A DNA stretch of 32,000 bases from an uncultured Pseudomonadota bacterium (GTDB lineage Bacteria > Pseudomonadota > Gammaproteobacteria > Competibacterales > Competibacteraceae). Where the stretch lies: contig CAVSVP010000023.1 of the NCBI GenBank assembly GCA_963731125.1, positions 199,550 through 231,549 on the forward strand, written 5' to 3'. Both the position numbers and the translations under genes were made by a program. The notes under the pieces were generated by a model. That model had not been told where the DNA came from and did no database searches. It was given only the letters and a program-made list of their open reading frames with translations. This document shows positions 2,352-21,738 of this stretch, in pieces (position 1 is the first letter of the stretch; each line of letters starts with the position of its first letter).

Positions 2352-3884
2352 ATGTATGAAATTCTTAAGCAACTAGAAGAAAAACGCGCCGCGGCACGGC
2401 TGGGCGGCGGCCAAAAACGAATTGACGCGCAGCATGCCAAAGGCAAGCTTGCGGCTCGCGAGCGCATCGAGTTGCTACTGGATCCGGGCAGCTTCGAGGA
2501 ATGGGATTTGTTTGTCGAGCATCGCTGTACCGAGTTCGGCATGGCGAATCAGACCATTCCCGGCGACGGCGTAGTGACCGGCTACGGCACCATCAACGGC
2601 CGCGTCGTCTTTGTATTTAGCCAGGATTTTACGGTGTTCGGCGGTTCTCTCTCGGAGGCCCACGCCGAAAAAATCTGCAAGATCATGGATCATGCCATGC
2701 GCGTGGGGGCGCCGGTGATTGGCCTGAACGATTCCGGGGGGGCGCGCATTCAGGAAGGCGTTGCTTCGCTGGCCGGCTACGCCGATGTCTTTCAGCGCAA
2801 TGTCATGGCCTCGGGCGTCATCCCCCAGATCTCCGTGATTATGGGAGCCTGCGCCGGCGGCGCCGTTTATTCCCCGGCCATGACCGATTTTATCTTTATG
2901 GTCAAAGACACCTCGTATATGTTTGTCACCGGTCCCGAGGTGGTCAAGACGGTAACCAATGAGGAAGTCACCCATGAGGAGCTGGGTGGTGCCGTGACTC
3001 ATTCCACCAAATCGGGCGTGGCCGATTGGGCTTTTGATAACGACGTGCAGGCGTTACTGGCGGTGCGCCGGTTTCTCAATTACCTGCCCGCCAATAATCG
3101 GGAGAAACCGCCCGTCCGGCCGACCCCCGATCCCGCCGAGCGCCTGGACCCTTCCCTGGATACTCTGGTGCCGCCTAACCCCAACAAGCCCTATGATATG
3201 AAGGAGCTGATTTTCAAGATCGTGGATGATCACGATTTCACGGAACTGCAGCCGGCCTATGCCAAAAACATTATCATCGGGTTTGGGCGTATGGAAGGTT
3301 CGACGGTAGGCATCGTGGCCAACCAGCCGCTGGTGCTGGCCGGTTGCCTGGATATCGACTCTGCCATCAAGGCGGCGCGTTTCGTGCGCTTTTGTGACTG
3401 CTTTAATATTCCTATTCTCACCTTTGTGGACGTGCCCGGCTTTATGCCCGGTACCGATCAGGAATACGGCGGCATTATCAGACACGGCGCCAAGCTGCTC
3501 TACGCCTATGCCGAGGCGACGGTGCCTAAGATCACGGTGATTACCCGCAAGGCCTATGGCGGCGCCTATGATGTGATGAGTTCCAAACATCTGCGCGGCG
3601 ATGTCAATTTCGCCTGGCCCACCGCAGAGATTGCCGTGATGGGGTCCAAGGGGGCGGTGGAAATTATCTTTCGCCAGGAAATCCGCGATACCGAACTGAT
3701 CGCCGAACGCACCCGGGTGTACCGCACCCGGTTCGCCAACCCGTTCATTGCCGGCAGCCGCGGGTTTATCGATGATGTCATCATGCCCCGCACCACCCGC
3801 AAGCGCATCTGCCGCTCGCTGTCCATGCTCAAGGACAAAAAGCTGGAGAATCCCTGGCGCAAACACGGCAATATTCCCCTGTAA
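2352..3884 (+). CDS. pccB: Propionyl-CoA carboxylase beta subunit (carboxyltransferase, 12S family)
   Basis: 510 aa, acyl-CoA carboxyltransferase family ([22 protein letters not shown]..., GGAYDVM, final GNIPL). AAGGAG Shine-Dalgarno (SD) 7 nt upstream. Followed 12 nt later by the biotin carboxylase/BCCP subunit. Confidence 0.9.
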
Positions 3885-3896
3885 GGAGCGCTTGTT

Positions 3897-5882
3897 ATGT
3901 TTAGCAAAATCTTGGTCGCCAACCGGGGCGAGATCGCCTGCCGTATCATTAAATCCGCCCGTAAGATGGGCATTCAAACCGTTGCCGTGTACTCCGAGGC
4001 GGACCAGACCGCGCTACACACGGAGCTGGCCGACGCGGCCGTGCTGATCGGCCCGCCCCCTTCGGGGCAGAGCTATCTGCGCATGGAGCGCATTGTCCAG
4101 GCCTGTCAGGACACCGGCGCCGAGGCGGTGCATCCCGGCTATGGTTTCCTCTCCGAAAACCCCGCGTTTGTCGAGGCCCTGGCCGCAGCGGGCATTACCT
4201 TTATCGGACCCAAGGCGCATGCCCTGACCAGCATGGGGGATAAGATTACCTCCAAACGCATCGCCCAGGAGGCCGGTGTCAACACCATTCCCGGGTTCGC
4301 GGGCGTCATCAAGGATGCCGGTCATGCCGTGGAGATCGCCCGGGATATCGGCTATCCGGTAATGCTCAAGGCCAGCGCCGGCGGCGGTGGCAAGGGCATG
4401 CGGGTCGCCTGGAACGATAGCGAGTGCCGGGACGGCTTCGAGCGGGCCAGCAACGAAGCCCGCTCCAGCTTCGGTGATGACCGGATACTCGTGGAGAAGT
4501 TTATCGAAGAGCCGCGTCATATCGAGATCCAGGTGCTGGCGGACAGTTACGGCAATGTGGTTTATCTGGGCGAGCGCGAATGCTCTATCCAGCGCCGTCA
4601 CCAGAAGGTGATCGAAGAGGCCCCTTCGCCGTTTCTGGACGAGATGACCCGCCAGGCCATGGGGGAGCAGGCGGTGGCGTTGGCCCGGACCGTGGATTAC
4701 CAGTCCGCCGGCACCGTGGAATTTATCGTCGATGCCCAGCGCAACTTTTATTTTCTGGAAATGAATACCCGGCTGCAGGTGGAGCATCCGGTTACCGAGT
4801 TTGTCACCGGCATCGATCTGGTGGAGCTGATGATCCGGATTGCCGACGGCGAAAGGTTGCCCTTTACCCAGGCCGATGTCAAGCTTAAGGGCTGGGCCCT
4901 CGAGGCGCGCATCTATGCCGAGGACCCGTTTCGCAATTTCCTGCCTTCCATCGGCCGGCTGGTGCGCTATATTCCGCCGGCGGAAAGTGCGGTGGTAAGG
5001 GTGGATGCCGGAGTGCAAGAGGGCGGCGAAGTCTCCATGTACTACGACCCGATGATTGCCAAACTGATTACCTATGGTCCTAACCGCGAGCAGGCCATCG
5101 CCCAGATGCGCACCGCGCTGGATGCGTTTTATATCCGCGGCGTTTCCCATAACATGGGCTTTTTGGCCGCCCTGATGGCGCATCCCCGCTTTGTGGAAGG
5201 ACGCTTGACCACCAGTTTTATCGCCGAGGAGTACCCCGACGGTTTTCATGCCGCCGATGTGCCCCACGACGAACCGGCCCTATTAATTACGGTGGCGGCC
5301 GCGATTCACCGCCGCTATATGGACCGGGCCGCCCTGATCAGCGGTCAGATGCGCGGCCTGGAACGCCAGGTGGAGGACGATTGGGTGGTGTTTATGGGCG
5401 GCAAGTACTATCCGGTGCTCGTAAAGCCCGTCCCCGGCGGTCATGATGTGGTTTACAACGATAAACTCTATGCGGTGCGCAGCGACTGGCAGTTCGGTAA
5501 CCCGATGTTTCGCGGCACGCTGAACGGCACCGACATCTGTGTCCAGGTAGAGCGGCGTTATCTGGAATACCGCCTGTTTCACAGCGGTTCCCAGGTGGAT
5601 GTGCTGATCATGCGGCCGCGGACGGCGGAATTACATGCCTTGATGCCGGTAAAGGCGCCGCCGGATTTATCCAAGTTCCTGATTTCCCCCATGCCGGGAC
5701 TGCTCACCCAGGTGTCCGTCGAGGCGGGCCAGGAAGTCAGGAGCGGAGAGACGCTGGTGGTGATCGAGGCCATGAAAATGGAGAATGTGCTCTATGCCGA
5801 GCAGGATGGCGTAGTGGCGAAGGTGATGGCCAAGCCGGGGGACAGCCTGGCGGTGGATCAGCCGATTATTGAGTTTGAATAG
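3897..5882 (+). CDS. pccA: Propionyl-CoA carboxylase alpha subunit (biotin carboxylase + C-terminal biotinyl domain)
   Basis: 661 aa. MFSKILVANRGEIACRIIK and the ATP-grasp GGGGKGMR motif, with a C-terminal EAMKMEN biotinylation motif. AAGGAG SD upstream. Confidence 0.9.
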   Translation: MFSKILVANRGEIACRIIKSARKMGIQTVAVYSEADQTALHTELADAAVLIGPPPSGQSYLRMERIVQACQDTGAEAVHPGYGFLSENPAFVEALAAAGITFIGPKAHALTSMGDKITSKRIAQEAGVNTIPGFAGVIKDAGHAVEIARDIGYPVMLKASAGGGGKGMRVAWNDSECRDGFERASNEARSSFGDDRILVEKFIEEPRHIEIQVLADSYGNVVYLGERECSIQRRHQKVIEEAPSPFLDEMTRQAMGEQAVALARTVDYQSAGTVEFIVDAQRNFYFLEMNTRLQVEHPVTEFVTGIDLVELMIRIADGERLPFTQADVKLKGWALEARIYAEDPFRNFLPSIGRLVRYIPPAESAVVRVDAGVQEGGEVSMYYDPMIAKLITYGPNREQAIAQMRTALDAFYIRGVSHNMGFLAALMAHPRFVEGRLTTSFIAEEYPDGFHAADVPHDEPALLITVAAAIHRRYMDRAALISGQMRGLERQVEDDWVVFMGGKYYPVLVKPVPGGHDVVYNDKLYAVRSDWQFGNPMFRGTLNGTDICVQVERRYLEYRLFHSGSQVDVLIMRPRTAELHALMPVKAPPDLSKFLISPMPGLLTQVSVEAGQEVRSGETLVVIEAMKMENVLYAEQDGVVAKVMAKPGDSLAVDQPIIEFE

Positions 5883-5923
5883 GGGAGAGGACCCCCAAAC
5901 CGAACTCAGGAAGGATGGAAAAC

Positions 5924-6787
5924 ATGACAAAACGGCCAGCCAAACCGGCGCCGCTGCGTGCCACCGTGCTGCTTCCCGCCCGCGAGATTCAGGCACTGGG
6001 AGCGGCGCTGTTGGTGGTGGGGTTGGCACTACCCTTCTGGGTGATTAAGGAACGCACCCGGCAGGCCGCGGCGGAGCTCGACGCTGCCACCGCTCCCGCG
6101 GCCGGGCCGCTGCGCCCGGAGCTGGTGCGCCTGCCGAATGGTTCTCCGGAGCACGAAATTAAGGTGCCCTTTGCCCTGGCCGTGACGGAAGTGACCCAGG
6201 GCCAGTACCGCCGGGTCATGGGCAACCTTCCCCAGGATGCCTCGTGTTCCCAGCCCGGGGATGATCCCGAACTGCCGGTGGTCTGCGTCACCTGGTTTGA
6301 AGCCATTGACTACGGCAATCGCTTGTCGGCATTGGAAAAACTAGAGCCTTGTTACCGTTACAACCGAGGGAGCGAGCCCATCTGGGACGGGCCTGAGTGC
6401 CCGGGCTACCGTTTGCCTACGGGGGCGGAGTGGGAGCACGCGGCACAGGCGGCAACCCATAATCGCTACGCCGGCACGGACGCAGACGGTGAGCTTTGCC
6501 GTTATGCCAATGTGGCGGAGCGGCGGTTTGCCTGCGCCGATGGCTTTACAACGGCGGCCCCGGTGGGGCATTTTCAACCCAATGCCTGGTTTTTGTACGA
6601 TATGACGGGTAATGTGGCGGAGTGGGTCTGGGATCGAAATGCCGCCGGCCAGGTGCTGGTAAAAGGCGGCGCCTGGACCGCAGGCCCGGATGCGGCAGGA
6701 TTGGCGCGGCAGGATTGGCGGGAACCGGCAGTTCGCCGGCCTGAGGTGGGATTTCGGATCGCCCGCTCGTTTCGGCAAGATGGTTGA
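5924..6787 (+). CDS. Membrane-anchored FGE-sulfatase-fold (SUMF1/FGS-like) domain protein, probably non-catalytic
   Basis: ORF 5915..6787. I prefer the ATG at 5924 because AGGAAGG lies 9 nt upstream. A basic N-terminus is followed by one hydrophobic helix (ALGAALLVVGLALPFWVI), then FGE-family motifs (VTWFEAIDY, YRLPTGAEWEHAA, NVAEWVWD, GGAW...GFRIARS). The region equivalent to the FGE catalytic Cys pair (GGSxxCHxSYC) contains no Cys. Confidence 0.8.
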   Translation: MTKRPAKPAPLRATVLLPAREIQALGAALLVVGLALPFWVIKERTRQAAAELDAATAPAAGPLRPELVRLPNGSPEHEIKVPFALAVTEVTQGQYRRVMGNLPQDASCSQPGDDPELPVVCVTWFEAIDYGNRLSALEKLEPCYRYNRGSEPIWDGPECPGYRLPTGAEWEHAAQAATHNRYAGTDADGELCRYANVAERRFACADGFTTAAPVGHFQPNAWFLYDMTGNVAEWVWDRNAAGQVLVKGGAWTAGPDAAGLARQDWREPAVRRPEVGFRIARSFRQDG

Positions 6788-6886
6788 TATATCTGGGGAT
6801 TTGAGGTCCGCTCATTTTTCCACGAATGTAAGATAAATCAACCTGGTAGGGCTGGTTAACCTACCCACCGCGCCAAATGATGATGA

Positions 6887-7132
6887 TCAGGCCGGAACGT
6901 ATTCGGGTACATCCCGTAACCGCATCAACCGATCCGCCTGGATAGGGAGCAGGGCATAAGTACGTCCATCTGGATCGGCGAACTCGACTTCAAAGGTGCT
7001 ACCGTCATAGGTCATCACGATCGTGCCGATCTGGCCACGGCGGAGCAGTAACGGCTGATCCGTTTCAAAGTGCTTTGCCGGTAGATCCTCAAGCAACGCG
7101 ACGACATCGTGCAGATGAAATGGAGTATTCAT
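6887..7132 (-). CDS. DUF4926 domain protein (putative antitoxin/immunity partner)
   Basis: 81 aa. MNTPFHLHDVVALLEDLP...GTIVMTYDGSTFEVEFADPDGRTYALLPI matches my recollection of DUF4926. The start lies 3 nt after the stop of the upstream DUF6883 gene. Confidence 0.7.
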   Translation of the reverse strand: MNTPFHLHDVVALLEDLPAKHFETDQPLLLRRGQIGTIVMTYDGSTFEVEFADPDGRTYALLPIQADRLMRLRDVPEYVPA

Positions 7133-7135
7133 AAA

Positions 7136-7468
7136 TTAAACGATATAACAAGTTGTCAGCCTGGGAAAGTCTTCACCATGGCGGATGATCCACACGGACA
7201 GCACGATAGCCGTGCCTTTCGCCGTATCGAGCGGGAAGCGAAGAATATAGACCGCCCCGAAACCATTGTCACCTCTTGGCTCTACCTGGTCGGAAGATGC
7301 CGCGGCATTGAGCAGGGCATTACGAAGTACTTGTGCGTTAGCAAGGGTAATGTCAAGGACTGAAGCAAACATATGCGCTTTATGCTTGCCTTCGCGATGC
7401 AAGGGGTTAAGAACGTAGTCCTCGAGTTTAACACCAAGATCTGCTCGTTCACCGTTAGGAAGTTTCAT
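7136..7468 (-). CDS. DUF6883 domain protein (putative toxin-like partner of DUF4926)
   Basis: The ORF track gives 7136..7606. The conserved family sequence starts at the internal Met: MKLPNGERADLGVKLEDYVLNPLHREGKHKAHMFASVL...WIIRHGEDFPRLTTCYIV, about 110 aa, which is the typical family length. I therefore place the start at 7468. Confidence 0.7.
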   Translation of the reverse strand: MKLPNGERADLGVKLEDYVLNPLHREGKHKAHMFASVLDITLANAQVLRNALLNAAASSDQVEPRGDNGFGAVYILRFPLDTAKGTAIVLSVWIIRHGEDFPRLTTCYIV

Positions 7469-7762
7469 GCCAGCAATTTTACTGCCTTCATCGTTTGCTC
7501 GGAAGACAACCCGTACCACCTTCCCAAGGACGAGATCATTATTACCACATCTCCTGATCGACTTAACGGAACGCCTGTCTTTGCCGGAACGAGAGTGCCT
7601 GTACAAACGCTTATTGACTACCTCGAAGCGGGAGATTCTCTGGATGATTTTTTAGTAGATTTTCCGAGTGTATCACGCGAGCTTGCTATTGCCGTATGGA
7701 ACTTGCGAATGAATAAAAAAAATTGGTCTGGTTCAAATCAAGGTAACACTCAGAGGGTCTAA
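7373..7762 (+). pseudogene. DUF433 (antitoxin-like) domain ORF with no usable start, probably a 5'-truncated remnant
   Basis: The DUF433 core (IITTSPDRLNGTPVFAGTRVPVQTLIDYLEAGDSLDDFLVDFPSVSRELAIAVW) begins near 7529. No ATG, GTG or TTG lies in frame between 7398 and the domain. The only canonical starts (7373-7397) force a 50-aa non-homologous leader that overlaps the DUF6883 gene antisense. There is no PIN/DUF5615-type partner downstream. Confidence 0.45.
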
Positions 7763-7829: not shown

Positions 7830-7869
7830 CAAAAATTTAAAAAAAATCAGGGGGGCTCCGCCCCCCTGA
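7830..7869 (-). terminator. Intrinsic terminator of the TIR/AAA+/vWA-FGE operon
   Basis: Perfect 9-bp GC stem, TCAGGGGGG-ctccg-CCCCCCTGA (7847-7869). On the minus strand it is followed by TTTTTTTTAAATTTTT, 38 nt after the stop at 7908. Confidence 0.75.
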
Positions 7870-7907: not shown

Positions 7908-10871
7908 TTAGAACTGCCTGGCCAGGCGAAACCCCCTGCCGTAGTTCCGGGTAGCCGGCGTGTTCCAGTTGCGGCCCGCCGCACGCACCCTATGCGGGCC
8001 GCTGCCCCAGGAGCCGCCCCGGAGCACACGAGGGTCACCATAATCAGCACGATTTTTGCTATAACACTCCTGCTCCGCACCACCGTAGTTTTTATCATAG
8101 ACTGAGCAGGTCCATTCCCAAACATTACCCGCTGTATCATAAAGGCCAAACGCATTCGCCCGAAAACTCCCTACCGGCGCCGTCTGTTTCCTGTCCCAGC
8201 GACTCCCGCAATTGTAGCAATTGGCATTATTGCTGCCGATATCGTTCCCCCACCAATAAGCCGTCTGCGTTCCTGCCCGCGCCGCGTATTCCCACTCCGC
8301 CTCCTTCGGTAAGCGGTATGCTTCGCCCGTCTGCTCCGATAACCAGTCCGCATAGTCCTTGGCATCTTTCCAGGTAACATTGATCACCGGTCGCCGTCCG
8401 CGGCCCCAGCCTCGATCGCCGGGTTTCTTACTGCCGGTAGCCTCCGCAAAACGATCATATTCCTCAAAAGTCACCTCATACTTACCCACGGCAAAAGGCC
8501 GCTCAATGCGCACCAAATGCTGCCGCTCATTGTCATAGCGGCCCCCCTCATCCTCCGGCGAACCCATCATAAACTCCCCCGCAGGAATGACCACCATCTC
8601 TGGTCCTTTTGAACCATCCTTCAACGTATCTCGAAATTCCGATTCAACCAGCTCCACCTCCCGGACAGCGGGCATTATTCCCGAGACTTCGATAGTCGTC
8701 GGTGGACGCAGCAGCCAGGTTTTCAGACCCGGCCATTGTTCCGCGACAAAAAAGCCTACAGTCACCGCCACTAACATGGTCAAACCAGGCTCCAGCCAAC
8801 CCTGCCACGGCCGGCCCAGCAGTTCTCCAAGATGCAACCGGCCTGCCGCGTGCCCCGTCACCAAAGCCAATTGGTCCTGCATGCCGGGCTCCAACAGCGG
8901 CAATTCCTTTTGACGCTCCAGTTCCACTTCAATGGCCCGCAGTAATTCGGCTCCGGCAGCCCCGTCAAGCAGAAGAGGCAGCCGCGCCAGCGCCCGCTCC
9001 GGTTCCAGGCGCAGCAGATGAGAGATCCGCTTGACTTCCCAAAATTGGCGCAACAGCTCGTCATCGGGGCGGGTGGCATCCAGCTGCTCCAGCAGCAGTC
9101 GCCGGCCTTGCGCCTCAAGCCGCTGCTCGGCAGGCAATTCCGCATCGCGCTGGCGCTGTTCGCGAATCAGTTTGTCGACAAGAGCTTCACTGAGTACCAG
9201 CGTGCGGCCGTCCTCGCTCTCGGGATTGGAGTTGTTGTCTTCCCGGGCTACCCACTCCAGCAGCCGCTGCAGATACCGTGGCGTCGGCAGGGCTGCGTTA
9301 AGGTCAGGAAAGCGCCGACGCAGATAGTCCAGTTGGTCCCAGGTGGCATCCGGCACCAGCGCCGCCAACAGGGCCCAACGCGGCAACGCTCGGGCAACCT
9401 CGGGATCGCTCAGCGGTTTGAGCGGCTCCCAGGTGGGCGTGCGTATGCCCTGTCCTCCTTCCGCAAGGTAGCGCGCTAGCGCCAGCAGGCCGGCCTCGCT
9501 AAAGGGAAAGCGCTGCAGGCCAAGCCCCTCCAGCTCGCGAATCTCCCGGCGTTCCCGACGGCGCTTGCCGAGGGGTCGCGGGTCGACGAGGTCCAGCCAT
9601 GCCTTCACCGGCCAGGCGTCGAGTTCTGCCAGCCAGGCAGCGCGCTCCCGCAGCCCCTGGGTACTGAGGGCGCGGGAGATAATCAGCAGCGGTTCGTCGT
9701 CGGCATGACGGGCCAGCCGCTGCAAAGGTACCGGGTTGCCCGTGGCGGGCATACTGACAAACAGGGGATCAAAACGGAAATCGTAACGGGCAAAACGTAC
9801 TCCCAGCGCTGCCCAGCGTTCCAGCAGCCAATGAATGCCCGCCAGCCACGGGTAGTCGCCACGCTCAATGTCCAGCAGTACCAGAAACTGCCCGGCTACG
9901 GATTGAGACAGGTAAACCGGCGCCAGCCGTCCACCCTGCTGTATCGTGGCGTGCACGGTGGCCGTAATATCCAGGTCGGCGCTGCTCAGTGATCGGAATA
10001 ACCGCCCTAGAATAGCGGCGGAATCCTCTGCCACGCTGACGGGCAGGGGAGGATACCGCTCGACCTGATAGGTCAGATGGAGCGGCGCCTGCCGCTGCTC
10101 TGCCTGCTCGGCAAGCCGCTTTCGCTCCGAGGTAACCCTTTGATGCCGTCGCACAGCCTGGGCCTGCCGGTAACGCTCAACCATGCCCGGCAGCAGCAGC
10201 CAGCGCAGGCCCACGCAAAAGAGCATCAAAGACAAACCGATCACCAGGGCGTCGCGGCCGTCGAGAGAACGTGGTTTGGGTTGGATTTCAACGGGCTCCG
10301 CCGAGGGGCGCTCCGGCACCAAAGGTTCTCCGCGAAGTATCCACCAGCGCTTGAGGCTATCGGGAGCGTCGGGTTCCGGCGGCGTCTTAATGGGTTCCGC
10401 ATCCTCCACAGGCGGTTCCGGAGGACGCAGTGACAGCGTCACTAAGGCGGCAACCCCCAGGCCCAGTAGCAGGGCGATGGTCGCCAACCATAGCCGGCGG
10501 GGGGCATTGCGGATACGCTGCCAAAGCGACGCAAAAAAAGTATGCCACCAGGACCGGCGTTCACACTGGCCGGGTTCTTCCAGCGCGGGCGTTTCCGAAT
10601 CTTTACCAGAGGGAACATTATCCGGCGCACTGGATGGTGGAGGTGCTTCCGAAAAGTAGAGATCAAACAGATTGACAATTTGCCGCCACTGCGCCTCATT
10701 CGTCGCTAGCAGTGCGGCCAGCCCGGCGCGTAGTTCGCGGCGGCTCAATGCCGGCCGCCGCGTCAGCAATTGCCGCACCTGGAGGTACTCCGCCGGGCCC
10801 AGGCGGATAATGCGACGCCGGTTGATGGCATCGAGAAAGGCTTGCACGTTGCGATCTGCCGCCCCGGCCAC
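7908..10871 (-). CDS. 987-aa three-TM protein: CoxE-like N-terminal helix region + TM hairpin + degenerate vWA-like core + helical region + TM + C-terminal FGE-sulfatase-fold (FGS) domain
   Basis: GTG start at 10871, 5 nt after the AAA+ stop. Hydrophobic helices at about aa 127-148, 207-229 and 695-712. The segment DLDITATVHATIQQGGRLAPVYLSQSVAGQFLVLLDIERGD resembles the CoxE-type vWA entry strand, with DIERG in place of the MIDAS motif DxSGS. The C-terminal 230 aa carry FGE-family motifs (VIPAGEFMMGS, VTWKDAKDYADWL, YRLPKEAEWEYAARAG, NVWEWT, RGGSW...GFRLAR) without the catalytic Cys pair. Confidence 0.85.
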   Translation of the reverse strand: MAGAADRNVQAFLDAINRRRIIRLGPAEYLQVRQLLTRRPALSRRELRAGLAALLATNEAQWRQIVNLFDLYFSEAPPPSSAPDNVPSGKDSETPALEEPGQCERRSWWHTFFASLWQRIRNAPRRLWLATIALLLGLGVAALVTLSLRPPEPPVEDAEPIKTPPEPDAPDSLKRWWILRGEPLVPERPSAEPVEIQPKPRSLDGRDALVIGLSLMLFCVGLRWLLLPGMVERYRQAQAVRRHQRVTSERKRLAEQAEQRQAPLHLTYQVERYPPLPVSVAEDSAAILGRLFRSLSSADLDITATVHATIQQGGRLAPVYLSQSVAGQFLVLLDIERGDYPWLAGIHWLLERWAALGVRFARYDFRFDPLFVSMPATGNPVPLQRLARHADDEPLLIISRALSTQGLRERAAWLAELDAWPVKAWLDLVDPRPLGKRRRERREIRELEGLGLQRFPFSEAGLLALARYLAEGGQGIRTPTWEPLKPLSDPEVARALPRWALLAALVPDATWDQLDYLRRRFPDLNAALPTPRYLQRLLEWVAREDNNSNPESEDGRTLVLSEALVDKLIREQRQRDAELPAEQRLEAQGRRLLLEQLDATRPDDELLRQFWEVKRISHLLRLEPERALARLPLLLDGAAGAELLRAIEVELERQKELPLLEPGMQDQLALVTGHAAGRLHLGELLGRPWQGWLEPGLTMLVAVTVGFFVAEQWPGLKTWLLRPPTTIEVSGIMPAVREVELVESEFRDTLKDGSKGPEMVVIPAGEFMMGSPEDEGGRYDNERQHLVRIERPFAVGKYEVTFEEYDRFAEATGSKKPGDRGWGRGRRPVINVTWKDAKDYADWLSEQTGEAYRLPKEAEWEYAARAGTQTAYWWGNDIGSNNANCYNCGSRWDRKQTAPVGSFRANAFGLYDTAGNVWEWTCSVYDKNYGGAEQECYSKNRADYGDPRVLRGGSWGSGPHRVRAAGRNWNTPATRNYGRGFRLARQF

Positions 10872-11893: not shown

Positions 11894-13108
11894 TTAGGCG
11901 TCCTGTAGATAGCGGTCTATCAGATCGGCCAGTTCCTGATAGCTCAACCGGGAACCGGAGATCAGCCGCTGGTACTCGGTTTTTAGCTCTTCAACCATTG
12001 CCGGCGGCGGGCGTGGACTTTGATGGCTGAAATAATCTTCCAGCTCTTCCCAGGTAGGCAGCTTTACCGGCGGCAGCAGGCGGTAACGAAGCCGGCCGCT
12101 GGCCTGCGCCTGCTGCCCCCAGGCATCGACGTGCTGCACCAGAGGAGGCAGCGTACCAGGTGGCATCTCGGCCTCTTCATAATCAAGGGCCAGCAGAATG
12201 CGAATATCGTTGCCGGGCCGGGCGTCATTCAGCAGGCCAGGCAGGGATTCGGTAATAAATTCCTGCAGCCCTGTCTGCTGATTGTCATCGAGCCGGTCCA
12301 GAGGACGTAGGCCGAGAATCAGAAACAGCGCCTGCTCCCGGGCGGTCTGGGCCAGGCATTGGGCGGCATTCCCCTGACCACCCAGCGCCAGGCGCAGATG
12401 CCGGCACCAATCGGCTCCGCAGCGCGCGGCAATGCCTTCCCATTTAAACCGCACCCGGTAAACCGCATGAGGAAAACGGGTTTCCTGGCTCAGATAGCGC
12501 TGGATGCGCTCGACGAACAGGGCGACATTTTGGTGCCGCGGCCCGTGTAGCAGAAATAACACGTGGCCGGGCTGGAGGCTTTCCTCGAGCACACCGCTCC
12601 ATTGGGGATAGCGGTCCAGGCGAAGCGCCGCCCCGAGGGCCAGGTAGTTTCCGGAAGAAAGCGGCGTTTGCGGCTGAGTTTGCCGGTCGCACTCGGTAAG
12701 CCAATTTGCGAGTTCTTGGGCGATGCGTTCAAGGCCGCCGTGCTTGGTAGCATCCATGGCCTGCAAAATGCCGGTGCCATAGGGCATGCCACCATGACTC
12801 TCCGGCAGTTTCTCGAGCAGAACGGGAATCACGGTATGCGCCTGGGGATTGTCCCGGGCAAGCTGAATAGCACGGGCGATCTCTTCGTGCTGGTAAAAAG
12901 CGGCATCGGTATGAGAGGAAATCAACACGACAGTGGCGCGGGAGGCTTGCAGGGCATCCCGCAGCGTAGTGGGCCAGGGCGCTCCCGGGGAAATACCCTG
13001 CTGATCAAGAAAGACCTGGCATTGTTGGTCTTGAAGCTCCCAGCACAACGCTTTTGCCTGCCGAGTATCGGATCCCGCATGAGCAATAAAAAAATCAAAT
13101 GGCCCCAT
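11894..13108 (-). CDS. TIR-domain protein with about 250-aa unassigned C-terminal domain (degenerate P-loop-like)
   Basis: 404 aa. The N-terminal roughly 140 aa show the TIR pattern DFFIAHAGSD...QVFLD...ATVVLISSHTDAAFYQHEE...VIPVLL. The C-terminal part has VLFLLHGPRHQNVALFVERI and ALFLILGLRPLDRLDD, reminiscent of Walker A/B strands but without GK[ST]. A GGGAGGGG SD lies upstream. Confidence 0.85.
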   Translation of the reverse strand: MGPFDFFIAHAGSDTRQAKALCWELQDQQCQVFLDQQGISPGAPWPTTLRDALQASRATVVLISSHTDAAFYQHEEIARAIQLARDNPQAHTVIPVLLEKLPESHGGMPYGTGILQAMDATKHGGLERIAQELANWLTECDRQTQPQTPLSSGNYLALGAALRLDRYPQWSGVLEESLQPGHVLFLLHGPRHQNVALFVERIQRYLSQETRFPHAVYRVRFKWEGIAARCGADWCRHLRLALGGQGNAAQCLAQTAREQALFLILGLRPLDRLDDNQQTGLQEFITESLPGLLNDARPGNDIRILLALDYEEAEMPPGTLPPLVQHVDAWGQQAQASGRLRYRLLPPVKLPTWEELEDYFSHQSPRPPPAMVEELKTEYQRLISGSRLSYQELADLIDRYLQDA

Positions 13109-13198: not shown

Positions 13199-13765
13199 AT
13201 GTCCACGGCGGCTTTATTAGAGAAAGCGGCTATTCGCAGAATGATTATGCCTATCTCGGTAGAGCAGTATCACAAAATGAGCGAAATTAGCCCGGATTTA
13301 ACAAAAACGGAACTGATTGAAGGTATTATTATCGAGAAAATGACTAAATCGCCATTACACACGTATCTGCTGCATTGGCTTTTTGAATTTTTCTCCAGCA
13401 AGCTACCTGCAGGTCACCTGCTGCGGAAGGAAGATCCCTTGACGCTGGCGGCATCCGAGCCGGAACCGGATATCGCCATTGTCAAAGGAAGCTTTGTGGA
13501 CTTTAAACACACACACCCTACGAGGGCTGAATTGGTCATAGAAATTGCCATCTCCTCATTGGAGCTGGATCGGGAAAAGGCAGAAATTTATGCGGCGGCA
13601 GGGATACCCGAATACTGGATAATCGTTCCCCGGGATACTGTCGTGGAGGTTTATCGAGAACCAGCCGAGGGAAAATACCAGACCATGAGAAGGTACGAAA
13701 AGACGCAATCCATTGCCACGGCCTGGGGTGCATTGGCTTTAGAGAAGCTGTTTAGTTTTGGATAG
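13199..13765 (+). CDS. Uma2 family (DUF820) putative restriction-endonuclease-like protein
   Basis: This is the C-terminal part of track ORF 12563..13765, whose 5' 600 nt are an antisense shadow of the TIR gene. ISVEQYHKMSE...ELIEGIIIEKMTKSPLH...EPDIAIV...ELVIEIAISSL..D..KAEIYAAAGIPEYWIV is the Uma2 pattern. I prefer the ATG at 13199 because GAGG lies about 10 nt upstream. The ATG at 13145 is also possible. Confidence 0.78.
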   Translation: MSTAALLEKAAIRRMIMPISVEQYHKMSEISPDLTKTELIEGIIIEKMTKSPLHTYLLHWLFEFFSSKLPAGHLLRKEDPLTLAASEPEPDIAIVKGSFVDFKHTHPTRAELVIEIAISSLELDREKAEIYAAAGIPEYWIIVPRDTVVEVYREPAEGKYQTMRRYEKTQSIATAWGALALEKLFSFG

Positions 13766-13776
13766 ATCCGTAGGCT

Positions 13777-15672
13777 TTAGTCAACCCAACTATCCCGCCA
13801 TTTAATAATGCCTTCGTTGGCTAAGATCCAGCGGCGGCAAATAAGATTTTCGCGAAGCGGTTCCTGATTGTCGCGCCACATGGCGTATTTGTAGGCAATC
13901 GCCTTTCCCGCACTCTCATTAAAGGGAATCTCACCAAACCAAGTATTATCGTTGATGTACTCTAGGGGGTACGCTTTGCGAATATCCCAGTTACCTAGCT
14001 CTGGACAATCACCCGTTACCACAATGGTTTCGCCGGGGTTAGTGGCAATGCCGTTGAGTTGGGCCCGCACGATGGTTTGCCCCTTAACCCGATCGCCGAT
14101 GTAACTGAGCACAATGATTTCCTTGGAGCCCAGCGTCAGGCCCAATAAATTACCGTCTTTGATTGCAAAGCGGCGCTGGGTCAACATACAAAAATATTCC
14201 CCATCTTCCAAATCGGTGAATTGCACATCGATGGTGGCTGAATCCCCCTTGTTCATCGCGATGAAGCAGCGCGAATCTCGATAACGCCGTAGATAACAGT
14301 AGCTATCCGGCGTGATATATTTTTGCACCTGACTGCCTAACGATACCGCTGGATTTAGTCGCCGTAGCTTCGAAAACGCCTGCAAATCCTGATAAATCTG
14401 GGTGTTCGTATCCCATTTGTCCAGCATTGGGCGATTATACGGATCATTCCCGCCATTGGTGTCATTATGGAGATACTGCTCCGTGCCGTAATAGATACAG
14501 GGTATGCCACGGGAAGTCATGACCAGAGCGATCGCTAACCGTAATATATCTAAGTCGGGATTAAGACTTAAAAATCGCTTCATGTCATGGTTATCGATAA
14601 ACGTCACCAGCTCCGTTGCCGTGTCATAAAGATAATCTAGATCCAATACGTATTGGATGAGGTGAAAGCCTTCTGGCGCCTCTTCTGCCAAAGCTGCCCG
14701 AAGCGCATCGCACAGGCCGAAATCCAGAATTGACATGCCCGATTTATTAGCAAAGTAGGGCGATTTGCCATCCTTGGGTGTGCTAAAACCCCATTCTCCA
14801 AAAATAAACACCGAGGGTTTATGCGTTTGAATATCGGCATTAAATTCTTGCCAAAACCAGAACGGCATATGTTTAACCGTATCCACGCGCAACGCATCAA
14901 CACCCCGTTCTAGCCATTGCTTGATAGCAGATTTGATGTAGTTGCGAAACTCAGGATTACTTTCATTAAACGTCGCCAAACCTGACAGTTCATAGTACAA
15001 AAGCTGAGTCTCGTCCTCCCAATCGGTAATCTCAGGATTATGGTGATACCAGTTGTTAACATCGTTGTAAAAATCGGCAATTAAAACGCCATTATCATAA
15101 AGTTCGCCTTTATGGCCGTTCACATCCGGACTGCTGTGGTTACAGACTATATCCAGGATTAGTTTCATGCCCCGCTTGTGCATTTCCACGAGCAGTCGAT
15201 CGAAGACCGTACATTTGAAAAGAGAAGTGTCTTCATCCTTAGCGACAAAGCGCGGGTTAATCCGCTTAAAATCTTTCGTCCAGTAACCATGCATGGCAGC
15301 GTAATAGTCAAACTGCAAATCTTCCACTTGCTCAAACAAAGGCGAAACCCAAATAGCGGTAACTCCCATGCCCTTTAAATAGTCAAGTTTATCAATAATC
15401 CCTTGGAGATCTCCGCCCCAGTATTTGCCCCATTGCTGTCGCGTGGGATCATAAAGTTCTGGATGCGGACCTTCGTTATTACTCGGATCACCGTCGTTAA
15501 AGCGATCAACGATAATGAAATAAATCGTTTCCTGGCGAAATTCAATCGACCTGGTAAAAAGAAATTCAAACTCCAAATCTTTTTCAGCAGCAACCGCAGT
15601 GGTATGAAACCCAGCAGCGGCCTCAAAAGCGGTTTTTTCAGTATCAGATTGGGATGGAGGAGTTTGCGCCAT
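13777..15672 (-). CDS. GH13 alpha-amylase-family glycosidase with C-terminal CBM20 starch-binding domain, no signal peptide
   Basis: GH13 conserved regions are present: DRFNDGD, GMKLILDIVCNHSS, GVDALRVDTVKHM, FIFGEW, FIDNHDM. The C-terminus has a CBM20-like GETIVVTGDCPELGNWD...AYKYAMW. The track ORF starts at GTG 15690. I prefer the ATG at 15672, which has GGAG 8 nt upstream. Confidence 0.88.
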   Translation of the reverse strand: MAQTPPSQSDTEKTAFEAAAGFHTTAVAAEKDLEFEFLFTRSIEFRQETIYFIIVDRFNDGDPSNNEGPHPELYDPTRQQWGKYWGGDLQGIIDKLDYLKGMGVTAIWVSPLFEQVEDLQFDYYAAMHGYWTKDFKRINPRFVAKDEDTSLFKCTVFDRLLVEMHKRGMKLILDIVCNHSSPDVNGHKGELYDNGVLIADFYNDVNNWYHHNPEITDWEDETQLLYYELSGLATFNESNPEFRNYIKSAIKQWLERGVDALRVDTVKHMPFWFWQEFNADIQTHKPSVFIFGEWGFSTPKDGKSPYFANKSGMSILDFGLCDALRAALAEEAPEGFHLIQYVLDLDYLYDTATELVTFIDNHDMKRFLSLNPDLDILRLAIALVMTSRGIPCIYYGTEQYLHNDTNGGNDPYNRPMLDKWDTNTQIYQDLQAFSKLRRLNPAVSLGSQVQKYITPDSYCYLRRYRDSRCFIAMNKGDSATIDVQFTDLEDGEYFCMLTQRRFAIKDGNLLGLTLGSKEIIVLSYIGDRVKGQTIVRAQLNGIATNPGETIVVTGDCPELGNWDIRKAYPLEYINDNTWFGEIPFNESAGKAIAYKYAMWRDNQEPLRENLICRRWILANEGIIKWRDSWVD

Positions 15673-15725
15673 AAATTCAGCTCCGGTCACGATAACGATT
15701 CACTGACTATTGTTGGATAAGGTGT

Positions 15726-17583: not shown

Positions 17584-19038
17584 CTACTGCGCCAAAGCCG
17601 ACAGCAGCACTCCCGCGGCCACGGCGGAGCCGATGACACCGGCCACGTTAGGACCCATGGCATGCATCAATAAAAAGTTATGGGGATCTTCTTTCTGGCC
17701 CACGTTATGTACCACCCGGGCCGCCATCGGGACCGCCGAGACACCGGCCGCACCGATCAGGGGGTTGATGGGGTGTTTGCTCAGTTTATTCATCAGTTTG
17801 GCCATTAGCACTCCACAGGCGGTGGCGATAACGAAGGCCAAAATGCCGAGCACAAAAATGCCGATAGTCTGCAAGGTCAAAAAGCTCGACGCCTGGGTTT
17901 TGGCGCCTACCGATACGCCCAGTAAAATGGTGACGATGTCAATCAGGGCCGTTTGGGAAGTCTTGGAGAGCCGGTCGGTGACCAGACTTTCCCGCAACAG
18001 ATTACCGAAGAACAGCATGCCCAGCAGGGGCAGGGCGGCAGGCGTAATAAACGCCGTCAGCAGAAAGCCGATGAGGGGAAACATAATGCGGGTGCGGCGC
18101 GAGACTTCCCGGGGCATCTCCATGCGGATCAGGCGTTCCCGCTGAGTGGTCAGCAGCTTCATCACGGGCGGCTGAATAATGGGCACCATCGCCATATAGC
18201 TATAGGCCGCCAAGGCCACGGCGCCCAATAGCTCAGGTGCCAAAGCGGTACAGACAAAGATGGACGTAGGCCCGTCGGCACCGCCGATAATACCGATCGA
18301 GGCGGCCTCCTTAAGATCGAAACCCAGGAGCACGGCGCCCACTAAAGCGCCGAAAATGCCGATTTGGGCGGCGGCCCCTAACAGCAGAGTCCGGGGGTTG
18401 CTCAGCATCGGGCCGAAGTCGGTAAGGGCACCGACGCCTAGAAAAATCAGCGGTGGGAAGATGCCAAGACCCACTCCCTGGAAGATAAAGTAAAAGAAAC
18501 CGGCATTCCAGACGCTCTGAGACTGGGGCGTGGCTACCGTAGGATAGCGGTTGTCATCGGCGGGCGCCTGCACAAAAATCTGCCGGCCCTGTCCCATATC
18601 GATAATAGCGGGTTTCTGAACATCTCCATAGTAAGTCAGTTTGACGTGTTCGTTAACGATGATTCCCTGGCCGTTTTCCACCAGACGCTTGCCTGCCTGG
18701 GAATCATGCACCGGCTCGATGGTCTTCAGCGGAATGTGTTCCTGGCCGCGTCTTTCGGTATGGTACACTTGTTGGTAGAGGGCGGGAGGGACTTTATAGT
18801 AATGCAGATCGGCTTCGCTTACCGGCCCGTCATAGACGCCGAGGCTCAATTGGCGGCTGTCATAGGGGATATTGCCGATCAGCATGCCAAAGCCGATCGG
18901 GACCAGCAGCAGGGGTTCAAATCGCTTGTTGATTGCCAGGTAAATAAATAGACAACCGATAAGGATCATGACCCCGTTTCCCCATTGGAACTGGCCAAAG
19001 CCAGTCTGCTGGAGAAAATTCAGCAGGGTTTCTTGCAT
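17584..19038 (-). CDS. mmdB: Na+-translocating decarboxylase beta subunit (OadB/MmdB/GcdB family), with a large loop insertion
   Basis: 484 aa. KRFEPLLLVPIGFGMLIGNIP...PPLIFLGVGALTDFGPMLSNPRTLLLGAAAQIGIF...IIGGADGPT are family signatures. It is the last gene of the decarboxylase operon. Confidence 0.9.
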   Translation of the reverse strand: MQETLLNFLQQTGFGQFQWGNGVMILIGCLFIYLAINKRFEPLLLVPIGFGMLIGNIPYDSRQLSLGVYDGPVSEADLHYYKVPPALYQQVYHTERRGQEHIPLKTIEPVHDSQAGKRLVENGQGIIVNEHVKLTYYGDVQKPAIIDMGQGRQIFVQAPADDNRYPTVATPQSQSVWNAGFFYFIFQGVGLGIFPPLIFLGVGALTDFGPMLSNPRTLLLGAAAQIGIFGALVGAVLLGFDLKEAASIGIIGGADGPTSIFVCTALAPELLGAVALAAYSYMAMVPIIQPPVMKLLTTQRERLIRMEMPREVSRRTRIMFPLIGFLLTAFITPAALPLLGMLFFGNLLRESLVTDRLSKTSQTALIDIVTILLGVSVGAKTQASSFLTLQTIGIFVLGILAFVIATACGVLMAKLMNKLSKHPINPLIGAAGVSAVPMAARVVHNVGQKEDPHNFLLMHAMGPNVAGVIGSAVAAGVLLSALAQ

Positions 19039-19097
19039 AAGTCAGTTTTCCAGTAGCAGGTGAATCGGTTTAAGGACACGGCAACGGCTTGGATGCA

Positions 19098-19478
19098 CTA
19101 CTCAAACTCAATTAAGAGTTGGCCCTGTTTGACCGCATCGCCTTCTGCTACATGGATGTTTTTAATGGTGCCGGGTCCTGCCGAGACGATATTGGTTTCC
19201 ATCTTCATCGCCTCGAGAATAATCAGGTCCTGCCCCGTTGCCACCCGATCGCCGACCTTGACCAGTAATTTAAAGACGGTTCCGGACAATGGACTGGTTA
19301 CGGTCGTATCGCCGCCGGAGGAGGGTGCGGCAGCCGCCGGCGCTTTAGCGGCGGCCTGTAGTTGTGGAGTGCTGGTCGGCGTCGGGGTAGCGGGTCGCGG
19401 GGCCGGTGCACCCTCTTCGTCCACAAATTCTACGTCCACCTCATAGGTGACGCCTTCTAGGGTAATCCTCAGTTTCAT
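19098..19478 (-). CDS. mmdC: Biotin carboxyl carrier subunit of the decarboxylase (MmdC-like)
   Basis: 126 aa, with an Ala/Pro-rich linker followed by a biotinyl domain carrying the LEAMKMET motif. Confidence 0.85.
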   Translation of the reverse strand: MKLRITLEGVTYEVDVEFVDEEGAPAPRPATPTPTSTPQLQAAAKAPAAAAPSSGGDTTVTSPLSGTVFKLLVKVGDRVATGQDLIILEAMKMETNIVSAGPGTIKNIHVAEGDAVKQGQLLIEFE

Positions 19479-19541
19479 AGGTTATGGCTTCTGTATTCTT
19501 GCTTTTGGGTCTAATGGAAGTGCTCAGCGAGATAGCAATGC

Positions 19542-19874
19542 TTAGCGAGATAATCCCTCTTTCTGATCGGCTCGTCCCACGGCTGTCCATAGCGCAGGAA
19601 CATGTTTATGACTGACAAAGCGTACCCGGCGGACACGCACCGGTCGCTTTACCGCAACGGTAGCCGCCGCGGCCAACAACACAATGACGTGTTTGTCGAT
19701 GCCCTGGAACGACTCCTCCGGAAGCGGTGCAGCAAAGTTGGCGGGAACAGGGGGTTTTTCCTGAAAAAGACGCCCTATTAAACTGACCATAATACCGGTA
19801 ACGATCAGGGCGAGAAACACGGCACTGACACCCACTACGGTCAGCTGAAAGCTTTCTGATAGCATTTCGGGCAT
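19542..19874 (-). CDS. mmdD: OadG-family small membrane subunit (MmdD-like)
   Basis: 110 aa. One N-terminal TM helix (LTVVGVSAVFLALIVTGIMVSLIG), a Pro-rich linker and a conserved-looking VIVLLAAAATVAV segment. It lies between the carboxyltransferase and carrier genes. ACGGAG SD upstream. Confidence 0.6.
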   Translation of the reverse strand: MPEMLSESFQLTVVGVSAVFLALIVTGIMVSLIGRLFQEKPPVPANFAAPLPEESFQGIDKHVIVLLAAAATVAVKRPVRVRRVRFVSHKHVPALWTAVGRADQKEGLSR

Positions 19875-19958
19875 GTTAGCAACTCCGTACTGTGATAACG
19901 GTAAGGGTGCGGTCTTTATGCACCAGGGCGCTGGGTTTTCTCGTAAACCAGCATAGGC

Positions 19959-21512: not shown

Positions 21513-21569
21513 ACGTTCACCAAGTGAACCTCAGCCCCGTTGGGAGAGGCTTGTTAAACCGGATGCTAT

Positions 21570-21738
21570 TTCCCCCTCACCCCAACCCTCTCCCACCAGG
21601 GGAGAGGGAGTTAAAAGCGTAACGTTCTCCCACCAGGGGAGAGGGAGTTAAAAGCGTAACGTTCTCCCACCAGGGGAGAGGGAGTTAAAAGCGTAACGCA
21701 AAACGATTGATTCCTCTTCTCCCCTTCAAGGGGAGAGT
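21570..21738. repeat. REP-like GC-rich hairpin array: 45-mer unit + 3 x 37-bp perfect tandem repeat + one further hairpin
   Basis: The 45-mer TTCCCCCTCACCCCAACCCTCTCCCACCAGGGGAGAGGGAGTTAA (21570-21614) is identical to 27140-27184. The unit CTCCCACCAGGGGAGAGGGAGTTAAAAGCGTAACGTT repeats with period 37 at 21590, 21627 and 21664, and the copies are identical through 21698. Each unit contains a CCCTCTCCC-accag-GGGAGAGGG-type stem-loop. A further hairpin, TCTCCCC-ttcaa-GGGGAGA, lies at 21716-21738. Confidence 0.85.

Follow-up and report, generated by a model that had tools for sequence, protein, structure and literature searches.

The 32,000-nt stretch analyzed here (contig CAVSVP010000023.1, assembly GCA_963731125.1), which we call the window, comes from a metagenome-assembled genome (MAG) of the Gammaproteobacteria. 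It carries an operon for a TIR-domain protein, a MoxR-like AAA+ ATPase and a 987-aa membrane protein read from a GTG start. We suggest that the gene for the 987-aa protein is most likely the von Willebrand factor A (vWA)-type component of an iSTAND ternary conflict (immune) system. Such systems (MoxR + vWA + iSTAND, where iSTAND denotes an inactive STAND NTPase module) are a computational prediction of Kaur, Burroughs, Iyer & Aravind (eLife 2020; PMC7159879). In the topology that we predict, the N-terminus is inside, the loop between the first two transmembrane (TM) segments is outside, the central module is inside, and the C-terminal domain, which has the fold of formylglycine-generating enzymes (FGE), is outside; this arrangement is well supported and holds across the family. 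Because the source is a member of the Gammaproteobacteria, the host has a periplasm. The region at 7911-8789, for which a first-pass annotation had proposed a periplasm-facing, non-catalytic sensor wired to a cytoplasmic TIR/AAA+ module, equals aa 695-987 of the ORF at 7908..10871 (-). We give a probability of roughly 0.55 to the whole chain, from recognition by a periplasmic lectin-fold domain through TM3 and the helical part to the vWA/MoxR pair, the TIR-iSTAND protein and NAD+ cleavage. Our confidence in the architecture alone, without the mechanism, is much higher.

The topology is based on Kyte-Doolittle hydropathy (19-mer) and charge counts by our own scripts. The 987-aa protein has hydropathy peaks at aa 129-147 (2.30), 209-227 (2.29) and 692-710 (1.64), and no other peak exceeds 1.25. 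The full-length AlphaFold2 model has helices at 125-147, 205-259 and 688-712; this model is mediocre (pLDDT 66.7, the last 50 residues being poor) and was used neither for fold searches nor for active-site geometry. Three hydrophobic segments also lie at the matching alignment positions of 15 homologues (36-57% identity). The three helices described in the first-pass annotation (about aa 127-148, 207-229 and 695-712) are thus recovered by hydropathy, by modelling and by homology. At TM3 the homologues reach hydropathy values of 1.5-2.6, and members under the TM3 threshold have a 17-residue hydrophobic stretch with Trp/Arg borders at the same position. Since TM1 and TM3 are weakly conserved in sequence yet remain hydrophobic, they are likely to be membrane spans and not structural helices.

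The layout extends to a large family. At E<=1e-3, a profile search with the central domain gave 1405 representatives, each standing for one cluster at 50% identity; 159 of them reach E<=1e-30. Architectures were counted in the 111 near-full-length members among the top 150 of the family. Two TM segments precede the central domain in 98 of these 111 members and exactly one follows it in 86, while 71 of the 85 long-tailed members have an FGE-fold tail. For 55 representatives with the canonical 2+1 layout, Lys and Arg residues (K+R) were counted up to 15 residues from the TM segments and compared by a Wilcoxon test. The predicted cytoplasmic faces carry 10.3 K+R versus 4.65 on the others, with the bias present in 53 of 55 (p=1.7e-10), and TM3 alone shows a bias of 38 versus 13 (p=3e-4); these p-values are optimistic because the sequences are related, but the direction is unambiguous. 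K+R averages 3.75 before TM1 versus 1.18 after it (more before in 50 of 55, fewer in none), and 1.65 before TM2 versus 3.71 after it. The charge features quoted earlier for the 987-aa protein are all seen: RIRNAPRR lies ahead of TM1, ERYRQAQAVRRHQRVTSERKR follows TM2, and the 58-aa loop between these segments is Pro-rich and acidic, with 12 D/E versus 9 K/R. Across the family this loop has a median length of 60 aa, 19% Pro and a mean net charge of -4, and an R-x-LD-x-RD motif, with the conserved columns R201 and D207, stands ahead of TM2.

Other observations are consistent with this orientation. The nearest solved relatives of the FGE-fold domain (PvdO, PorK/GldK and TvpA) are periplasmic or surface proteins, as would be expected if the domain is extracytoplasmic. 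In other family members a PEGA tail sits after a TM3-like hydrophobic segment. Cys922 and Cys936 of the tail are both present in four homologues and both absent in eight, as expected of a disulfide, which would fit an oxidising environment outside the cytoplasm. Neither the MoxR nor the TIR-iSTAND protein has a TM segment, signal peptide or hydrophobic segment, so the vWA-like module that they must touch is predicted to be cytoplasmic. With three conserved TM segments and the charge bias across TM3, the extracytoplasmic placement of the FGE-fold domain in the first-pass annotation is supported, and so is its cytoplasmic placement of the N-terminal and central parts.

The Pfam scan of the 987-aa protein finds one domain, FGE-sulfatase (PF03781), at aa 756-985 (E=3.4e-57, 194 bits), and gives no match in the central part. 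In the Protein Data Bank (PDB) the best match of the domain is PvdO (5hha, E=1.3e-41), followed by true FGEs at about 1e-23 to 1e-24, and then by PorK/GldK, EgtB and Treponema TvpA. In the alignment to the Streptomyces FGE (6muj), 'LRGGSYLCHDSYCNRYRVAAR' lies opposite 'LRGGSW---GSGPHRVRAAGR', and FGE 'LCHDSYCNRYR' is opposite 'W---GSGPHRVR' of the 987-aa protein. Neither copper-binding Cys has a counterpart, and there is a deletion of three residues. The FGE motif CxxxxCxR[YF]R occurs in 0 of 92 family tails, and no sulfatase gene is present among the window ORFs scanned with Pfam. The first-pass annotation had read no Cys in this stretch, and the alignment and the 92 tails bear this out: the catalytic pair is not retained. 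We therefore exclude a true FGE, since the Cu(I)-binding Cys pair is lost, even though the fold (PF03781) is present. We also exclude PvdO identity: the score against the NCBIfam PvdO model (166.2 bits) is a third of the equivalog cut-off of 500, and there is no pvdMNO/pyoverdine context, the neighbours being TIR, MoxR, toxin-antitoxin (TA) cassettes and propionyl-CoA and methylmalonyl-CoA genes.

The pattern of conservation in the 92 tails suggests a binding role. R951, G952, G953, S954, R963, A965 and R967 are conserved, as is the GFR motif; variation is free at 956-961, 966 and 968-969, and the variable positions coincide with the location of the FGE active site. In the targets of diversity-generating retroelements (DGRs), the variable region also lies at the site of the fold equivalent to the FGE active site. 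Compared with a conserved catalytic site, a binding surface would better account for a conserved scaffold with a hypervariable loop. DGR hypermutation of the tail is rejected for the window: 7908-8300 and 6500-6790, which cover the 3' ends of the two FGE-fold genes, have no template repeat in it, the 66% similarity between paralogues excepted, and none of the scanned ORFs of the 32 kb encodes a DGR reverse transcriptase (RT). Thus, any diversification of the tail would be by ordinary divergence. The predicted loss of catalysis is secure for FGE chemistry only. In this sense the earlier term "non-catalytic" is correct for FGE chemistry and too broad as a general claim, since the best match, PvdO (E=1e-41), is needed in vivo.

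The wiring to a TIR/AAA+ module, also part of the first-pass annotation, finds support in the gene spacing, in one shared terminator and in synteny. Gene 2 starts 3 nt past the stop of gene 1 and gene 3 starts 5 nt past the stop of gene 2; judging from these gaps, the three genes are translationally coupled. The terminator downstream of gene 3 (Table 1) would mark the end of the three-gene transcription unit. The order TIR-iSTAND, MoxR, membrane protein recurs in at least nine other loci, among them loci of Entotheonella and Myxococcales, of an unclassified Proteobacteria MAG and of several metagenomes. Two loci, from Entotheonella palauensis (L002) and from Polyangia (L004), end upstream of the membrane-protein gene and were excluded for gene order. 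The C-terminal slot of the family is variable and holds FGE, PEGA, TPR or WD40 domains. PADLOC v2 leaves the 987-aa protein unmatched, gives weak generic matches for the MoxR and TIR proteins and returns no system-level match. A tblastn search of PLSDB with the central domain gave no match that would indicate plasmid carriage.

In the product of gene 1, a TIR domain at about aa 4-135 (window 12704-13099) is followed, from about aa 160, by a putative inactive STAND NTPase module. The match to iSTAND (PF19995) has E=0.0025 and 18.6 bits, under the 24-bit cut-off; among nine orthologous first-gene products iSTAND is the sole recurrent non-TIR family, found in six (best E=0.0012), all under the cut-off. 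HGPRHQNV stands at the P-loop position in place of GxxGxGK[ST], which points to an inactive NTPase site. In an alignment with the plant TIR 3jrn, E76 of the TIR domain falls on the Glu of the 'CLDEL' motif, which we take to be the TIR catalytic Glu; by this alignment the TIR-iSTAND protein keeps the catalytic residue. The product of gene 2 has intact Walker A (GEPGCGKT) and Walker B (VVLIDEID) motifs, and orthologues with 54-70% identity occupy the same position in three related loci (L001, L003 and L005). Its match to the NCBIfam 'MadB family AAA-type ATPase' is partial, covers the C-terminal lid region and scores 76 bits versus a cut-off of 475; a literature search on MadA/MadB returned unrelated proteins only.

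Two related loci differ from this arrangement. Among full-length homologues from other organisms, P0002 (L006 8001-11006) is the most similar (54% identity); it lies on a metagenome contig that stops 600 bp downstream of it. In a Myxococcales MAG (L005 7290-11278) a distant relative ends directly after TM3, the next gene encodes a polytopic membrane protein of 572 aa, and the first-gene product of that locus (737 aa) has no recognisable TIR. The Myxococcales locus is a variant of the system with other input and output modules.

A fourth gene encodes a small, anchored FGE-fold protein and starts 33 nt past the carboxylase alpha gene. The catalytic Cys pair is missing from this protein too, and among solved structures TvpA (2y3c, E=1.5e-23) is closest to it. 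Its orthologues have 276-360 aa, a single TM anchor, TvpA-like sequences and conserved Cys pairs, and share the anchor motif LLPAR..R.LGG.LL.VGL.LPW..I..RT.Q ... LRPEMV.LP. Of 12 informative loci, 11 have the gene right beside the system, mostly in convergent orientation to the operon, and it is also present where the tail of the vWA protein is PEGA or WD40. Since the linker of the WD40 member has no TM3-like segment, the periplasmic parts there would be the Pro-rich TM1-TM2 loop and the small FGE-fold protein only. Judging from these loci, a periplasmic FGE-fold module, whether fused, separate or both, looks like something close to a core component of the family. We found no mention of the partner gene in the texts consulted and regard it as a possibly new component; it may be a co-receptor, a decoy or an unrelated neighbour.

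The central module is the part for which the assignment is weakest. The AlphaFold2 model of its 459 residues (pLDDT 83, pTM 0.77) shows two domains, one alpha/beta and vWA-like (about aa 270-470), the other all-helical (about aa 490-690). The order of strands and helices in the former, beta-alpha-beta-beta-alpha-beta-alpha-beta-alpha-beta-alpha, is that of a vWA domain. The top PDB match in Foldseek is 9qhe_G, a chain of the NorQD complex (E=0.019, prob 0.89), none of the matches being significant, and a bona fide vWA domain (CMG2) is found at rank 44. Pfam VWA_CoxE matches weakly in 6 of 44 diverse family members, with a best E of 1.2e-4, just ahead of beta1. The four helices predicted at the N-terminus agree with the published description of the CoxE-type 4-helical N-domain in the vWA proteins of iSTAND systems (PMC7159879). 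Several points weigh against the assignment: the vWA matches in Foldseek have E>=0.019 and TM-scores of about 0.2-0.33, the VWA_CoxE matches of the family are all under the cut-off, and the DxSxS motif of the metal ion-dependent adhesion site (MIDAS) is absent, the position after beta1 reading D334-I-E336-R-G-D. The family consensus at this position is VDxExGDHP. A PDB profile search with the central-domain alignment gave no meaningful sequence-level match. We consider a vWA-like domain of the CoxE/NorD type plausible, and it would fit the partnership with MoxR, but the assignment is weak; the "vWA-like" label is one of the weakest parts of the first-pass annotation.

We propose the following mechanism. 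The periplasmic lectin-fold domain would bind a ligand derived from an invader or from damage at the envelope stage, for example a tail or an ejected protein of a phage, a toxin that has been delivered, or a fragment of glycan or peptidoglycan, and the small anchored FGE-fold protein would probably act together with it. A conformational change would then pass via TM3 to the helical and vWA module. The MoxR ATPase would remodel the vWA domain, as in MoxR-vWA pairs such as NorQ-NorD, and the TIR-iSTAND protein would be released or assembled. Finally, the TIR NADase would deplete NAD+ or make a signal nucleotide, and the infected cell would be stopped.

Several points count against this proposal. 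TM3 of the 987-aa protein is just moderately hydrophobic (1.64), and for the topology we used our own scripts for hydropathy and charge in place of TMHMM or DeepTMHMM. The best match of the FGE-fold domain, PvdO, is implicated in catalysis, so an enzymatic role is possible. Upstream of P0002 there are short ORFs but neither a TIR nor a MoxR gene, and P0002 may be an orphan or decayed copy; the Myxococcales relative is without any FGE domain. PADLOC has no model for the membrane protein, and our literature search found no experimental test of any iSTAND system. In addition, the authors who defined the class take FGS, their name for the FGE-fold domain, as an effector or neutraliser and not as a sensor (PMC7159879).

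A more specific version of the proposed chain is that the locus encodes a split pathway in the style of a Toll-like receptor, in which two periplasmic lectin-fold modules feed the MoxR/vWA relay and the TIR-iSTAND NADase. The receptor would be fused to the membrane-spanning vWA scaffold, the co-receptor would be the small anchored FGE-fold protein, and recognition of the invader would take place at the envelope stage, either ahead of the entry of its genome or while this is under way. We regard this version as tentative and less likely than not. If it is true, it would be the first bacterial TIR pathway with extracytoplasmic sensing and would give the conserved fourth gene its first assigned role.

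The sensor role put forward in the first-pass annotation is where published views differ. For related systems it was proposed by Dore et al. (PNAS 2024; PMC10907252), while PMC7159879 calls FGS domains 'effectors' or neutralisers. Following the latter, the architecture could be the same but with the periplasmic FGE-fold domain as an effector or trap: sensing would be cytoplasmic, for example by the iSTAND module, and the MoxR-vWA pair would deploy the lectin-fold domain to bind and neutralise invader particles or toxins in the envelope (the 'neutralising effector' of Kaur et al.). The FGE-fold protein Tsi3 neutralises a toxin delivered by a type VI secretion system (T6SS) through binding alone, and the variable C-terminal position (FGE, PEGA, TPR, WD40) is like the effector slots of these systems. 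However, a canonical enzymatic effector, the TIR domain with its catalytic Glu, is already present, and a constitutively displayed periplasmic binder needs no ATPase for 'deployment'. Sensing by STAND proteins normally involves an active NTPase and a repeat sensor, and the 404-aa iSTAND protein is without both. Since PMC10907252 also favours the sensor reading, we consider an effector or trap unlikely.

The system could instead be directed at inter-bacterial attack or kin discrimination and not at phage. The FGE-fold modules would then recognise T6SS effectors, bacteriocins or surface molecules of neighbours, the TIR arm would run suicide or dormancy, and the hosts would be social or multicellular bacteria. 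Tsi3 is again a precedent, in that its FGE-fold domains bind T6SS effectors in the periplasm. Relatives of the system are found in Entotheonella, Polyangia and Myxococcales, and Entotheonella is filamentous. Moreover, iSTAND systems are statistically enriched in multicellular bacteria, according to PMC7159879. Against this, no T6SS, vgrG or effector genes are present in the window or in the loci examined, the Tsi3 proteins form their own clade beside their effectors (Lopez et al. 2021), and the surroundings here resemble a generic defence island, with a nuclease and TA cassettes. Such a target therefore seems quite improbable to us.

Very improbable, in our view, is a metabolic locus in which the FGE-fold domain is a PvdO-like periplasmic enzyme or subunit and the MoxR-vWA pair is its maturation or cofactor-insertion chaperone. 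In favour, PvdO gives the best match among solved structures, and an oxidation in the periplasm depends on it in vivo (PMC6206403); chaperoning of metalloenzymes is the classical role of MoxR-vWA pairs, a NorQD chain being the top structural match here; and the small partner gene lies directly after the propionyl-CoA carboxylase genes. But a cytoplasmic chaperone cannot reach a periplasmic domain, the loop equivalent to the active site is hypervariable, the MIDAS site of the vWA domain is non-canonical, and a maturation pathway would leave no role for the conserved TIR-iSTAND partner; the low PvdO score (166 versus 500) and the lack of pyoverdine or other biosynthetic genes nearby also speak against it. 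Least probable of all is that TM3 is an amphipathic or interfacial helix with no true span and the FGE-fold domain is cytoplasmic, like the FGS domains of STAND/VMAP systems: TM3 reaches just 1.64, about 12 FGE-tailed representatives are under the 1.6 threshold, the FGS domains of conflict systems are described as intracellular sensors (PMC8195603) and the WD40-tailed member P0066 has a linker without a TM3-like segment, but 17-21 hydrophobic residues with aromatic and Arg borders lie between the central domain and every FGE tail examined, their hydrophobicity is kept despite sequence divergence, the charge bias across TM3 is significant, Cys pairs covary within the tail, and the envelope-associated PEGA domain fills the same post-TM3 slot.

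The features of the locus are collected in Table 1.

Table 1. Features of the operon, the 987-aa protein, the partner gene and neighbouring cassettes (window coordinates), and small FGE-fold genes of related loci (coordinates of each locus)
Feature	Position	Strand	Basis or remark
Gene 1, TIR-iSTAND protein, 404 aa	11894..13108	-	Pfam TIR_2 E=1e-19
Gene 2, MoxR-like AAA+ ATPase, 337 aa	10877..11890	-	Pfam AAA_5 E=2e-6, 28.3 bits vs cut-off 22
Gene 3, probable vWA-type component with FGE-fold domain, predicted three-pass membrane protein, 987 aa	7908..10871	-	ORF and translation
N-terminal four-helix domain, predicted cytoplasmic, aa 1-75	10647..10871	-	AlphaFold2 helices 2-18, 26-38, 44-55, 59-72
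TM1, aa 125-147	10431..10499	-	Kyte-Doolittle 2.30; AlphaFold2 helix 125-147
Predicted periplasmic loop, aa 148-206, Pro-rich, acidic	10254..10430	-	Charge count, family statistics
TM2, aa 207-229, continuing as a long, predicted cytoplasmic basic helix	10185..10253	-	Kyte-Doolittle 2.29; AlphaFold2 helix 205-259
Central module, predicted cytoplasmic, aa 232-690	8802..10178	-	AlphaFold2, Foldseek, weak Pfam matches
TM3, aa 692-712	8736..8798	-	Kyte-Doolittle 1.64; AlphaFold2 helix 688-712
FGE-fold (FGS / C-type-lectin-like) domain, predicted periplasmic, aa 756-985	7917..8606	-	Pfam PF03781
Active-site-equivalent stretch RGGSWGSGPHRVRAAGRNW, aa 951-969, no Cys	7965..8021	-	Alignment to FGE, 92 tails
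Intrinsic terminator, 10-bp stem, 8 G-C pairs, then T8	7847..7869	-	39 nt past gene 3 stop
Small FGE-fold protein, 290 aa, one N-terminal TM anchor (ALGAALLVVGLALPFWVI), convergent with operon	5915..6787	+	Pfam FGE-sulfatase E=6e-31
DUF4926	6887-7132	-	
DUF6883	within 7136-7606	-	
DUF433	within 7373-7762	+	
Small FGE-fold gene, L001	10376-11278		
Small FGE-fold gene, L002	2611-3474		
Small FGE-fold gene, L003	10466-11545		
Small FGE-fold gene, L004	4592-5422		
Small FGE-fold gene, L008	8979-10007		
Small FGE-fold gene, L009	9141-10091		
Small FGE-fold gene, L010	9259-10188		
Small FGE-fold gene, L011	9159-10160		
Small FGE-fold gene, L012	10364-11305		
Small FGE-fold gene, L013	9396-10478		

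The surroundings of the operon resemble those of a defence island: a Uma2 nuclease gene and DUF6883, DUF4926 and DUF433 genes here, and PemK/RHH and BrnA cassettes in relatives. The gene of the Uma2 family (restriction-endonuclease-like; Pfam E=7e-25) lies at about 13199-13765 (+), divergent from the TIR gene. Uma2 genes are also found just upstream of the system in L006, L009, L011 and L007, the last of which is apparently the window locus itself; the Uma2 gene may belong to the island or to the system. Small TA-like cassettes of lower GC fill the space between the operon terminator and the small FGE-fold gene (window 6887-7762), and the equivalent place in L008 has a DUF4926 gene and a PemK/RHH pair. 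An alpha-amylase gene with a CBM20 starch-binding domain follows at 13777-15690 (-); its GC content of 0.47, versus about 0.6 for the neighbours, suggests a separate horizontal acquisition beside the defence locus. Genes of propionate and methylmalonyl-CoA metabolism surround the defence locus at 2352-5882 and 17584-28500. These encode propionyl-CoA carboxylase beta and alpha, a second carboxyltransferase, an OAD beta subunit, two methylmalonyl-CoA mutase subunits, MeaB and a glyoxalase-type epimerase-like protein. T6SS genes, vgrG and tse3-like effectors are absent from the window and from 12 related loci.

To our knowledge, the bacterial TIR defences studied by experiment (Thoeris, TIR-STING, TIR-SAVED and Avs-type) sense intracellular cues. 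A periplasmic recognition module for a TIR pathway would show that detection at the envelope stage can be coupled to NAD+-based suicide, echoing Toll-like receptors. The first-pass annotation overstated how unusual this is, since membrane-proximal action and CLec (C-type-lectin) or FGE sensors have already been predicted (PMC7159879 and PMC10907252). Thus, the idea of envelope-sensing TIR immunity is already in the literature, but it is directly testable here. In this family, which has 1405 representatives, the 2TM-vWA-1TM-FGS layout is fixed and the anchored FGS partner is conserved, which makes it a compact test case. It could be used to test the computational hypotheses on iSTAND and MoxR-vWA ternary systems and could settle the published disagreement on whether FGS is a sensor or an effector.

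Among known systems, FGE/SUMF1 shares the fold and the scaffold motifs (RLPTEAEWEYAAR, GNVWEW, RGGSW and GFR) with the domain studied here; unlike FGE/SUMF1, this domain has lost both copper-binding Cys, has a 3-residue deletion and has no sulfatase gene nearby. PvdO, the best solved match over the whole domain, is likewise periplasmic and without the FGE Cys pair. It is needed for oxidation in vivo and is inactive and cofactor-free in vitro (PMC6206403). Here, in contrast, there is no pvd context, and the domain forms the C-terminal end of a membrane protein (987 aa) whose gene belongs to a TIR operon. The Tsi3 family also has an FGE fold without the catalytic residues of FGE, PvdO or EgtB and is a pure binder of a delivered toxin (Lopez et al. 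2021; 10.1101/2021.05.21.445229), but Tsi3 proteins are stand-alone, lie beside the effector and vgrG, and have no linkage to TIR, MoxR or vWA genes.

The pairing of a MoxR-class AAA+ protein with an adjacent, here putative, vWA protein is shared with NorQ-NorD and CoxD-CoxE, in line with the NorQD chain as top structural match and the CoxE-type Pfam matches in family members. Those pairs are soluble and insert metal cofactors, whereas the predicted vWA protein here spans the membrane, has a non-canonical MIDAS and has a TIR protein as third partner. By analogy only, animal Toll-like receptors and Zorya also couple extracytoplasmic recognition across the membrane to a cytoplasmic executioner. 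In Toll-like receptors the executioner is likewise a TIR domain, but their sensor and TM parts have no homology to those described here, where the TIR domain is on a separate protein that would be reached via a vWA/AAA+ relay. Zorya has a MotAB-like stator and no lectin fold.

For VMAP-type ternary systems, PMC10907252 proposes that sensing falls to a CLec domain of the vWA protein, that MoxR passes the signal on and that the effector of a third protein acts; some of the CLec domains are predicted to be periplasmic via TM segments. Unlike the DGR-diversified CLec systems of that study, the 32 kb here have no template/variable repeat and no RT, and the predicted third component is an iSTAND protein. 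As to the FGE-fold domains, the fused one is PvdO-like and not TvpA-like, the small partner being the TvpA-like one.

The closest comparison is with the iSTAND ternary systems as described in PMC7159879. They share with the present locus three components in the same order, a TIR domain fused to an inactive STAND module, which is putative here, and a MoxR protein without VMAP-type extensions. The 987-aa protein would also resemble their vWA proteins, which are described with a 4-helix N-domain, with TM segments near the N-terminus in 28% of systems and with FGS at the C-terminus in 22%. FGS is the commonest C-terminal domain of these systems, a subset of which is predicted to act next to the membrane (section 20); the 2021 follow-up calls it an 'intracellular invader-sensing lectin-like' domain (PMC8195603). 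The differences are that the MIDAS position here is DxExGD and not DxSxS, that the C-terminal domains preceded by a TM segment in the main text of PMC7159879 are PEGA, OmpA, PASTA and Sel1, FGS not being explicit, and that the sections consulted make no mention of a separately encoded, TM-anchored FGE-fold partner. As described there, the class is purely computational, with no experimental member. The present locus is thus a well-supported further example of published predictions and not a new type of system.

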